The notes under the pieces were generated by a model. That model worked only from the letters and a program-made list of their open reading frames with translations, was not told where the DNA came from and searched no databases. A DNA stretch of 64,000 nt from Moniliella sp. 'wahieum'. Taxonomy: Eukaryota. The DNA is taken from contig RSEE01000035.1 in NCBI GenBank assembly GCA_003971905.1, positions 558,001 through 622,000 on the forward strand. Direction: 5' to 3'. Each line of letters starts with the position of its first letter. Within the stretch, counting starts at the first letter, position 1. This document shows, piece after piece, positions 8,665 through 10,718 of the stretch. A program made the position numbers and the translations under genes.

Positions 8665-10718
8665 ATGGTTGCGCCGTACATCCCCCGCTCCTCGGCGCCT
8701 GTCTACCCCGACGACGCGCACTTCGTCCCCTGCCGCACCGACGGCCATGCGCCCACTGCCGCCGAGCTCATTGCCGCCCACCCGGACCTCGACACGCAGG
8801 TGTGCGAGAAGCTGCCGGCGGGCGTGCCCATGCCCCGCGTCATCCTCCTCCGCCATGGCGAGACGCCCTGGTCCTTATCTGGCCAGCACACTGGCCGCAC
8901 CAACCTGCGTCTGACGCCGCACGGCGAGCAGCTTGTCGCCCAACTTGGGCCCTCGGTCGTCGGCGACGACCCGCGTCCGCAAGACAACGAGATGGCCCTC
9001 CTGACCCCCCACCATCTGGGGTATGTGTTTGTTTCGCCGCGCGGCCGGTCCCAGCGCACGCTCCAGCTCCTGCTGCAGCATTTGCCCGACTCGGTGCGCA
9101 GCAAGATCCCGTTGCCCGAGGTGCGGGACGACGTGCGGGAATGGGACTATGGTCTGTTTGAGGGACGTACCCCGGCCGAGGCACGCGCGTTCCCAGGCTA
9201 CGCCCACTGGGACATTTGGCGCGATGGGACTCCCGACGACCCTACCGATCCCAACTTACCAGGCGAGTCGCCGCAGCACATGACGGATCGGATCGACCAC
9301 ATGATCCAGCAGATTCGCCTTATCCAGCGTGCTGCTGCCCATGGCTACCTGGCCGATGACCGTGGCATTCGGATCGACGCTACCAAAGGTCATCGTACCG
9401 CCGATATTCTTATTGTCGCTCACGGACACTACAACCGGTACGTTTTTTGCGCCTGCTTGCTCTCCTGGTACGGCTACTGATCTCGGATTGGATGGGGTGG
9501 CTTCTTACCCACAGTTGCTTCATTGCTCGTTGGCTTGACCTTCCGCTGGAGATGGGCCAGCGGTTCGCAGTCGACGCCGGTGCGATCACCATTCTTTCCT
9601 ATGCCCACAAGAACTTTTGTGAGCCGACGATCGGGTCGCTGTTTAGCGCCCAGGACGGCCTTCACCCGCCAGTCGACGAGGTCAACAGTAGTGAGACCAA
9701 GCTCAAGGCTGGCAACGCACCCATTGGTCTGCCGCAAACCTTGGTCAAAGGCACGTTGCGCACCGAGGGGCTGCGGGACGCCGTTGCGCATTGCCTTTCC
9801 GGCCGCGTCGTCGGTGCCAATCCCGATACGGACAACCCTGGTGAGCGGCAATACCAAGCGCTGGTGCAGGCCGTGCTCGATTCGGGCGAAAAGCGCCAAG
9901 ATCGCACGGGCCATGGAACACTCGCCCTGTTTGCCCCGGCACCCATGAAATTTGACCTGTCCCACGGGCAGCTTCCTCTGCTCACCACCAAGCGTGTCTT
10001 TTTCCGTGGCGTGGCCGAGGAACTGCTTTGGTTCGTGCATGGCTCGACCGATGCCAACCTGCTCGCCCAACGCGGCGTGCACATTTGGGATGGTAATGGC
10101 AGCGAAGCGTTTTTGCGCCAGCGGGGCCTGCCCTACCGCCAAGGCGACTTGGGACCGGTCTATGGCTTCCAGTGGCGCCACTTTGGCGCACCCTACACCT
10201 CGGCCGAGGCGGATTACACCGGCCAAGGTATTGACCAACTGGCCCAGATCGTCGAGACCATCAAGACCAACCCGACCGACCGACGCATCATCTTGTCCGC
10301 TTGGAACCCGGCGCAGAACGCCCAGATGGCCCTGCCGCCCTGCCACGTCCTGGCGCAATTTTTCGTCTCGCATCCCGACGGCCACGGCGGCGGCCAACTG
10401 AGCTGCCAAATGTACCAGCGCTCGGCCGACTTGGGCCTGGGCGTGCCATTCAACATTGCGTCGTATGCGCTGCTGACGCACATGCTGGCCGAAGTGACGG
10501 GCTTGCGCGCACGCGAACTCACCATTGTCCTTGGCGACGCACACGTGTACCTCAACCACGTCGAGCCGCTCAAGGAACAGCTCAAGCGCGACCCTTACCC
10601 GTTCCCCACGCTCCACTTTGCTCGCCACGTCGAGGCCATGGAGGATTTCAAGACCGAGGACTTTGTCCTGCAGAATTACAAGACCTGGCCCAAGATCGAG
10701 ATGGCCATGGCGGTGTAA
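8665..10718 (+). CDS. Fusion protein: N-terminal histidine phosphatase (Shb17/sedoheptulose-1,7-bisphosphatase-like) plus C-terminal thymidylate synthase, 658 aa, intron 9438-9514
   Basis: Phosphatase motifs LLRHGET, SPRGRS, REWDYG, WDIWRDG and AHGH. Thymidylate synthase motifs [53 protein letters not shown] and DAHVY. Intron GTACGT...CTGAT...CAG joins AHGHYNR-CFIARWL. Confidence 0.92.

Follow-up and report, generated by a model that had tools for sequence, protein, structure and literature searches.

Whether a sugar-phosphate phosphatase and thymidylate synthase (TS), two enzymes whose reactions share no metabolite, are made as one polypeptide, and what such a polypeptide would be for, is the question raised by a gene at positions 8665-10718 of a 64,000-nucleotide (nt) stretch of Moniliella sp. 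'wahieum' DNA (assembly GCA_003971905.1, contig RSEE01000035.1, positions 558,001 to 622,000 of the forward strand), hereafter the window. The architecture of this gene, its conservation among relatives and the intactness of its catalytic motifs can be read directly from the sequences. The best explanation, to which we assign a probability of about 0.6, is that of one gene for a bifunctional polypeptide, in which a phosphatase of the Shb17 type and a TS of the ThyA type would be held on a flexible tether and which would have a single early origin.

A previous annotation made from the letters of the window, the sequence-only reading, had proposed an open reading frame (ORF) of 658 amino acids (aa) after removal of one canonical intron, a linker of about 65 aa, a complete ThyA domain fused in frame, and no methionine between the end of the phosphatase and the start of ThyA. 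All of these proposals hold in the gene model given here, the elements of which are as follows.

8665-9437, + strand: exon 1, 773 nt, with the start codon ATG at 8665-8667.
8665-8829, + strand: N-terminal extension of 55 aa before the conserved start MPRV, from the first ATG of the open frame, with coding-like GC content and alignable with database protein P0241.
8830-9437, + strand: histidine phosphatase (Shb17-like) domain, first part (Pfam His_Phos_1, E 1.7e-21; best PDB match YKR043C).
9438-9514, + strand: intron of 77 nt, GTACGT...CTGAT...CAG, of the GT..AG type and phase 2, directly after the AHGHYNR motif.
9515-10718, + strand: exon 2, 1204 nt, ending GTG TAA.
9515-9644, + strand: C-terminal part of the phosphatase domain, ending EPTIGSLF, which shares its exon and reading frame with TS and is alignable with stand-alone phosphatases.
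9645-9842, + strand: linker of ~66 aa between the phosphatase tail and TS, with coding-like GC content.
9843-10715, + strand: thymidylate synthase (ThyA type) domain (Pfam Thymidylat_synt), with a free C-terminus ...KIEMAMAV.
10716-10718, + strand: stop codon TAA, at the end of the exon 2 frame.

Joined, the two exons give 1977 nt (773 + 1204), an uninterrupted run of 658 codons followed by the stop codon. ATG 8665 is the first ATG of a frame that opens at 8575 in the + strand ORF scan; with the intron left unspliced, the frame of exon 1 stops at 9478-9480, and a second + frame is open from 9360 through to the TAA at 10716-10718. Exon 2 alone encodes the last ~43 phosphatase residues, the linker and the whole of TS in an unbroken frame, and this continuity from the phosphatase C-terminus to TS is the strongest argument for one polypeptide that the sequence offers. 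The intron site is also marked in the databases: six ORF-called relatives (P0121-P0125 and P0241) stop or lose similarity exactly there, and gene models with organism names read on past it with HGHFNRVFIARWL. Methionines occur at residues 1, 56, 110, 206, 213, 271, 402 and later, and since Met402, the first after 271, lies beyond the DRTG arginine (R388) of TS, this domain has no AUG start of its own.

The N-terminal boundary is less uniform among relatives. All 18 aligned relatives, 15 of them with organism names, have their start at MPRV, or a few residues from it at most, where the window protein has Met56 (position 8830), and lack the 55-aa extension. GC content by codon position is 0.75/0.53/0.91 in the extension, compared with 0.72/0.46/0.75 and 0.67/0.41/0.79 in the two domain cores; the flanks, with 0.68/0.71/0.58 on the 5' side and 0.53/0.65/0.55, are unlike the domain cores. 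Database relative P0241 aligns through the extension in frame and without indels, with query residues 4-257 in one stretch at 73% identity. The extension is probably translated in the clade of the window, to which this support is confined; the start was kept at 8665, with 8830 (Met56) as the alternative.

The N-terminal domain was recognized by Pfam His_Phos_1 (PF00300) on exon-1 residues 59-218 (E 1.7e-21, 77 bits against a cut-off of 21.7). Residues 2-31 of exon 2 match positions 154-183 of the NCBIfam histidine phosphatase profile PRK13462 (E 0.006), and the beginning of exon 2 can also be aligned to stand-alone phosphatases of fungi and bacteria, in their C-terminal part. Because the start of exon 2 matches this C-terminal part, the intron falls, by alignment, within the phosphatase domain. 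The catalytic set, whose roles are established in the histidine phosphatase superfamily and in Shb17, is complete: R63-H64-G65 (RHG), R128 (SPRGR), E159 (REWDYG) and H253 (AHGH). As counted from the PDB alignment, R63, H64, R128, E159 and H253 of the window correspond to R12, H13, R69, E99 and H176 of Shb17, and these five residues (R, H, R, E, H) are invariant among aligned fused sequences in two alignments (19/19 and 20/20). Since they are invariant in every fused sequence examined, the phosphatase would be an active enzyme and not a relic.

Structure entries of YKR043C (Shb17), namely 3lg2, 3f3k and 3ll4/3oi7, are the best PDB matches of the domain (E 1e-26 to 2.5e-25), followed by GPM2/Rv3214 of Mycobacterium tuberculosis (2a6p, E 1.7e-11) and by phosphoglycerate mutases at about 1e-4. 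By this ranking the N-terminal domain is Shb17-like, nearer to YKR043C than to other histidine phosphatases, as the sequence-only reading had proposed from the motifs REWEYG, WNIWRDG and AHGH, all of which align. According to PMC8151747 and PMC4535450, Shb17/YK23 hydrolyses the bisphosphates of sedoheptulose and fructose, acts in riboneogenesis and supplies the non-oxidative pentose phosphate pathway, and GPM2 is, according to PMC4535450, a functional fructose-1,6-bisphosphatase with a histidine-phosphatase fold. By analogy with these two characterised relatives, the fused phosphatase is most likely a sedoheptulose-1,7-bisphosphatase/fructose-1,6-bisphosphatase.

The variable region after WDIWRDG differs from that of YKR043C. 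Fused forms carry the insert GTPDHPxxPxxLPGES, where stand-alone fungal proteins read DGCPG--GES; relative to YKR043C this amounts to an additional stretch of ~9 aa (PDHPxxPxxLP). Together with the tail FSSKTGP, the insert was present in all eight fused rows and in none of the ten stand-alone fungal rows of the alignment. A shorter form of it occurs in two of three bacterial stand-alone relatives; thus, the insert is not unique to fusions.

The C-terminal half is a canonical TS in all respects examined. Pfam Thymidylat_synt (PF00303) covers exon-2 residues 112-400 (E 6.7e-107, 357 bits against a cut-off of 24.3) and positions 2-266 of the 266 of the profile, a match that, with the free C-terminus, makes the ThyA domain complete; NCBIfam TIGR03284 matches with 305 bits against a cut-off of 108, and an end-to-end alignment of the TS half is obtained with TS of Cryptococcus neoformans (PDB 2aaz, E 2.7e-118). 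The residues R388 (DRTG), R514-R515, C534 (PPCH), R560, N571 and H601/Y603 are present, and the catalytic and binding residues are invariant in 22/22 rows of the TS alignment. From the Escherichia coli and human enzymes, the cysteine of PPCH is known to be catalytic, the arginines and the Asn, His and Tyr residues bind deoxyuridine monophosphate (dUMP); the C-terminus of TS enzymes must stay free. Because all catalytic residues are kept in both domains, both enzymes are probably active. Among the TS matches in the databases, a 566-aa "thymidylate synthase" of Brassica cretica (P0001) scored 761 bits, above any fungal relative, and yet covers 50% of the query, which suggests that its gene model holds more than one TS-like stretch.

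The AlphaFold2 model of a homologue from Tilletiaria (20 aligned sequences) has two confident domains, with a mean predicted local distance difference test (pLDDT) score of 81.9, joined by low-confidence linker residues 250-268, and a predicted template modelling (pTM) score of 0.55, so that the packing of the domains against each other is not confidently modelled. In Foldseek the TS-domain fold of this homologue matches stand-alone fungal TS, such as that of C. neoformans, with a template modelling (TM) score of 0.92; with the full homologue model, all 50 matches listed were TS structures and none fell on the phosphatase half.

The distribution of the fusion was traced by a protein search with exon 2, in which the 8000 candidates sharing most words with the query were scored (length 220-700 aa) and the best 120 listed. 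PF00303 and PF00300 occur together in 39 of these best 120 TS relatives, the co-occurrence for which the sequence-only reading had suggested looking. Organism names are attached to 18 of the 39 two-domain proteins, and all 18 belong to genera of Ustilaginomycotina: Kalmanozyma, Exobasidium, Sporisorium, Tilletiaria, Violaceomyces, Sympodiomycopsis, Tilletiopsis, Melanopsichium, Pseudozyma flocculosa, Testicularia, Parajaminaea, Thecaphora, five Malassezia, and Tilletia. Lineages were looked up for Violaceomyces, Parajaminaea and Tilletiaria, and the remaining 15 organisms we take to be Ustilaginomycotina. Among the matches listed, the fusion is common to the named Ustilaginomycetes, Exobasidiomycetes and Malasseziomycetes. 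Named matches of ~300 aa with PF00303 only come mostly from Agaricomycotina, Coemansia, Mucoromycota, Saccharomycotina and Blastocladiella, and no stand-alone TS of this size from a named member of Ustilaginomycotina was found among the best 120 TS matches listed. The models of Thecaphora and of two other database entries (P0026 being among the flawed models) carry an unaligned insertion after HVEPLK that looks like a retained intron.

The corresponding search with exon 1 among proteins of stand-alone length gave, as the top five of the 120 matches listed, ORF calls ending at the intron site; the pairs P0121/P0005, P0124/P0029 and P0241/P0002, each of an exon-1 and an exon-2 call with one "longest contig" value in common, suggest that these are halves of the same split genes. 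The first named stand-alone phosphatases come from Rhodosporidiobolus and Rhodotorula (Pucciniomycotina), followed by Agaricomycotina and Ascomycota, and none of the ten named fungal proteins among these 120 best matches is from Ustilaginomycotina. A search for longer phosphatase proteins returned five matches among 5890 candidates, namely P0241 and four named fused proteins. The scan of 1.84 billion cluster representatives gave 2052 matches at E <= 0.001, six of them at <= 1e-30; of the 150 representatives listed, five exceed 400 aa, two of which are TS fusions (P0242 and P0033), one reads into the intron (P0241), and two are P0243 and P0380, the latter being described below. P0243 (517 aa) contains the phosphatase only; a different fusion was suspected in it and then dismissed, because the C-terminal half of P0243 is rich in Arg and Ala, as expected of an out-of-frame read of GC-rich DNA. 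No phosphatase-TS fusion from outside Ustilaginomycotina appeared among the top matches listed. A search of metagenome DNA with the exon 2 query retained 80 loci, all of them ordinary TS genes that match mostly query residues 105-400, with no close fused relative among them, and a Protein Atlas feature search returned generic histidine-phosphatase clusters only.

The phylogenetic tree of the phosphatase domain (33 rows, 232 columns) was rooted with bacteria as outgroup; Shb17 of Saccharomyces cerevisiae is not among its rows. All fungal phosphatase sequences, fused and stand-alone, split from bacteria (100/98). Within them, 13 fused sequences including that of the window form a clade (97/95), in which the window branches first; its lineage lies outside the sampled Ustilaginomycetes and Exobasidiomycetes. 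Further classes of Ustilaginomycotina are listed by NCBI. The sister group of the fused clade (83/84) consists of two stand-alone Pucciniomycotina proteins (Rhodotorula/Rhodosporidiobolus), one of which carries the UniRef name sedoheptulose-bisphosphatase, an unverified annotation. A tree constrained to place all 16 fused domains in one clade is worse by 1.9 log-likelihood units, a difference that does not lead to its rejection (p-AU 0.213). The fused forms also share the insert after WDIWRDG, the tail FSSKTGP and an intron site after HGH(Y/F)xR, and these shared derived characters speak for a single fusion event.

The segment joining the domains is less conserved than the domains themselves. 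Linker length and sequence vary among lineages in the alignment of the 18 relatives, and in the window the linker is ~35-45 aa longer than in the 18 aligned relatives outside its own clade (15 with organism names). The nearest relatives P0002, P0003 and P0004 (~80% identical) have this extra stretch too, conserved at the protein level, and database protein P0005 was called from within it. GC content by codon position in the linker is 0.70/0.50/0.73, of the coding type, and because of this composition together with the protein-level conservation in P0002-P0004, the extra piece is taken as coding and not as a missed intron. A hidden second in-frame intron was sought by eye and rejected, since the best GT..AG pair, 9691-9845, is 155 nt long, which is not a multiple of three. 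AlphaFold2 gives pLDDT < 50 for the window linker. A short helix is predicted, with low model confidence, in its clade-specific segment (window 9765-9800, exon-2 residues 84-95); the segment is kept in P0002-P0004 and absent from 15/15 aligned relatives with organism names.

Taken together, these results are best accommodated by a bifunctional protein with a Shb17-type, metal-independent sugar-bisphosphate phosphatase at its N-terminus and a canonical ThyA TS at its C-terminus. Such a fusion would have arisen once, early in Ustilaginomycotina, would have been inherited vertically since, and would take the place of SHB17 and TS, which are separate genes in other fungi. At the core would be the TS dimer, with the phosphatase carried on the TS N-terminus so that the TS C-terminus is left free; the placement of the phosphatase on the N-terminal side would follow from this need. 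Since the two reactions share no metabolite, the enzymes would act independently, and two independent enzymes on a flexible tether are favoured by the low pTM, the variable linker and the want of a common metabolite. The benefit, if there is one, would lie in co-expression, at a fixed 1:1 ratio, of a ribose-supplying enzyme with the sole enzyme of de novo deoxythymidine monophosphate (dTMP) synthesis and not in substrate channeling, against which the variable, low-confidence linker and the unshared metabolites argue, without speaking against co-regulation. We infer this co-expression rationale, like the phosphatase substrate, the two activities and the single origin.

Several observations weigh against one or another part of this explanation. 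Orthology to Shb17 would rest on the ranking of PDB matches and on unverified database names. In histidine phosphatases the region after WDIWRDG adds to the substrate pocket, and given the insert in this variable region, the substrate specificity of the fused phosphatase may be shifted. The three Malassezia phosphatase domains sit on a long stem in a polytomy, apart from the other fused sequences in the free tree, and the TS-domain tree, whose deep nodes lack resolution, has no bearing on one versus several origins; a single origin is compatible with the data and not demonstrated by them. Finally, the conserved extra segment suggests that in the clade of the window the linker is not a purely passive tether.

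The alternative that survives best, although unlikely, is that the phosphatase has been repurposed, so that it acts on dUMP, dTMP, another pyrimidine phospho-metabolite or a phosphoprotein, or senses a sugar phosphate and thereby modulates TS; either way the halves would be coupled in function as well as physically. The sequence-only reading had offered a repurposing for nucleotides, or a coupling of pentose supply to dTMP synthesis, as what the fusion may do. A joint function would more easily explain why the fusion was retained over three named classes, and it would fit the insert GTPDHPxxPxxLPGES and tail FSSKTGP shared by the fused forms and lacking in 10/10 stand-alone fungal relatives, as well as the conserved linker segment of ~40 aa in the clade of the window. 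However, all catalytic residues and most of the motifs shared with YKR043C are kept, the shorter insert in two of three bacterial stand-alone relatives means that this feature need not relate to TS, and the models do not pack the domains confidently (pTM 0.55). A bolder form of the idea, which we regard as quite unlikely, is that the phosphatase gates TS in response to how much sedoheptulose or fructose bisphosphate is present, through the insert, the tail and the clade-specific linker helix, or that it uses a pyrimidine nucleotide. If true, it would mean that DNA precursor synthesis is under direct control from the non-oxidative pentose phosphate pathway, a link not described so far, across a subphylum that includes Malassezia and the smut fungi.

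It is improbable that the fusion is a neutral accident, in which the phosphatase was caught in front of an essential gene, draws no benefit from the linkage and is perhaps dispensable. The pathways have no common metabolite, the linker varies in length and sequence, and the PPCDC-TS protein of Schizosaccharomyces pombe indicates that TS tolerates arbitrary N-terminal partners, all of which an accident would accommodate; yet the invariant catalytic residues of the phosphatase (19/19 and 20/20) point to a domain under purifying selection, and none of the 18 named organisms was seen to have split the fusion into separate genes again. That the fusion is an artefact or yields separate products, through mis-assembly, a missed intron or stop, an internal non-AUG start or proteolysis in the linker, is hardly credible, for although the sequence is compatible with post-translational cleavage, exon 2 is one unbroken frame from the phosphatase C-terminus through TS, the same continuity recurs in the independent assemblies and gene calls of at least 39 database proteins, including the ORF-only calls P0002 and P0029, the linker has coding-type GC content and an amino-acid sequence conserved within the clade, and the first Met past residue 271 lies inside TS, beyond the DRTG arginine.

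A bifunctional phosphatase-TS protein, the reading that we prefer, would join the known class of N-terminal TS fusions. In the DHFR-TS of protozoa and plants, entries of which (PDB 2h2q, 1qzf and 3qgt) are matched by the TS of the window, an unrelated N-terminal enzyme is likewise followed by a linker and a C-terminal TS with a free C-terminus. The partner in the window is, in contrast, a histidine phosphatase, and no DHFR domain (PF00186) was detected in the Pfam scan; moreover, dihydrofolate is common to the DHFR and TS reactions, whereas no metabolite is common to those of a sugar bisphosphatase and TS. The sequence-only reading had named DHFR as the familiar ThyA partner, which stands as far as it goes and fails if DHFR is understood as the sole known one: according to work from 2013 described in PMC6695811, the PPCDC core of S. 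pombe Hal3 is followed by a TS that is functional and lies at the C-terminus. That protein resembles the present one in being fungal and lineage-restricted, with a metabolically unrelated enzyme at the TS N-terminus, and differs in that its partner is a flavoprotein decarboxylase of CoA synthesis and that it is found in the genus Schizosaccharomyces (PMC9604783). No match to the PPCDC flavoprotein domain was obtained in the window gene with Pfam at E <= 0.01, and the PPCDC-TS and phosphatase-TS fusions are clearly independent events.

The stand-alone counterparts of the two halves set the fused form apart in a complementary way. S. cerevisiae Shb17/YKR043C/YK23 (3f3k, 3lg2, 3ll4, 3oi7) aligns in RHG, SPRxR, REW(D/E)YG, W(D/N)IWRDG and AHGH but is a stand-alone protein, to which the fused forms add the ~9 aa after WDIWRDG and a conserved tail running into the linker. 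GPM2/Rv3214 of M. tuberculosis (2a6p), also a sugar bisphosphatase, is a stand-alone bacterial protein and a far more distant relative. Stand-alone fungal TS, such as that of C. neoformans (2aaz), aligns end to end with the TS half but has ~300 aa and no N-terminal enzyme. A different combination was met in the 406-aa protein P0380, in which ribose-5-phosphate isomerase B (LacAB_rpiB, E 4.9e-44) is joined to a Shb17/GPM2-like phosphatase (E 3e-12 to the domain of the window), an independent fusion that ties the same phosphatase group to pentose phosphate metabolism.

The histidine phosphatase is a new partner within the known class of N-terminal TS fusions, and the fusion is real and ancient. 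Full-text searches, whose reach leaves out most subscription journals, found no literature on a fusion of a histidine phosphatase or Shb17 to TS, and thymidylate is not mentioned in the supplement of the Malassezia sympodialis proteogenomics study; a survey of fungal gene fusions such as that of Leonard and Richards (PNAS, 2012), or its supplements, may mention the fusion. In the databases the fused proteins are named "thymidylate synthase", "related to thymidylate synthase" or hypothetical. De novo dTMP comes from TS alone, and the enzyme is a classic target of drugs. Across a subphylum that includes the skin-associated Malassezia and the smuts and bunts of crops, TS seems to make up the C-terminal half of a larger protein, the other half being a phosphatase of the riboneogenesis type; a target that is otherwise highly conserved thereby has a structural feature specific to this lineage. 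The fusion would also serve as a clean shared character for the subphylum Ustilaginomycotina and would hint, as a "Rosetta stone", at a tie between phosphatases of the Shb17 type and the supply of nucleotides. Its value lies in an architecture overlooked in public sequences, and no new principle is involved.

The surroundings of the gene in the window contain the following further coding features.

Within 2370-3866, + strand: fragment of an ELO-family fatty-acid elongase (partial ORF matches).
Within 5005-6714, + strand: TCP-1/cpn60 chaperonin subunit (partial ORF matches).
11570-13037, + strand: VHS/GAT-domain trafficking protein, downstream (partial ORF matches).

Because the elongase, the chaperonin and the VHS/GAT neighbour were each seen as partial ORF matches only, these genes probably contain introns; none of them relates to nucleotide or pentose metabolism. 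An antisense ORF at 9474-10808 (444 aa) gave no Pfam match and is a shadow frame of GC-rich coding DNA (window GC content 60.5%). Finally, three tandem copies of the 15-nt unit GTTGTGAGTGCGGTC (93% matches) occupy 8588-8632, 33 nt upstream of ATG 8665, in the presumed 5' leader or promoter.

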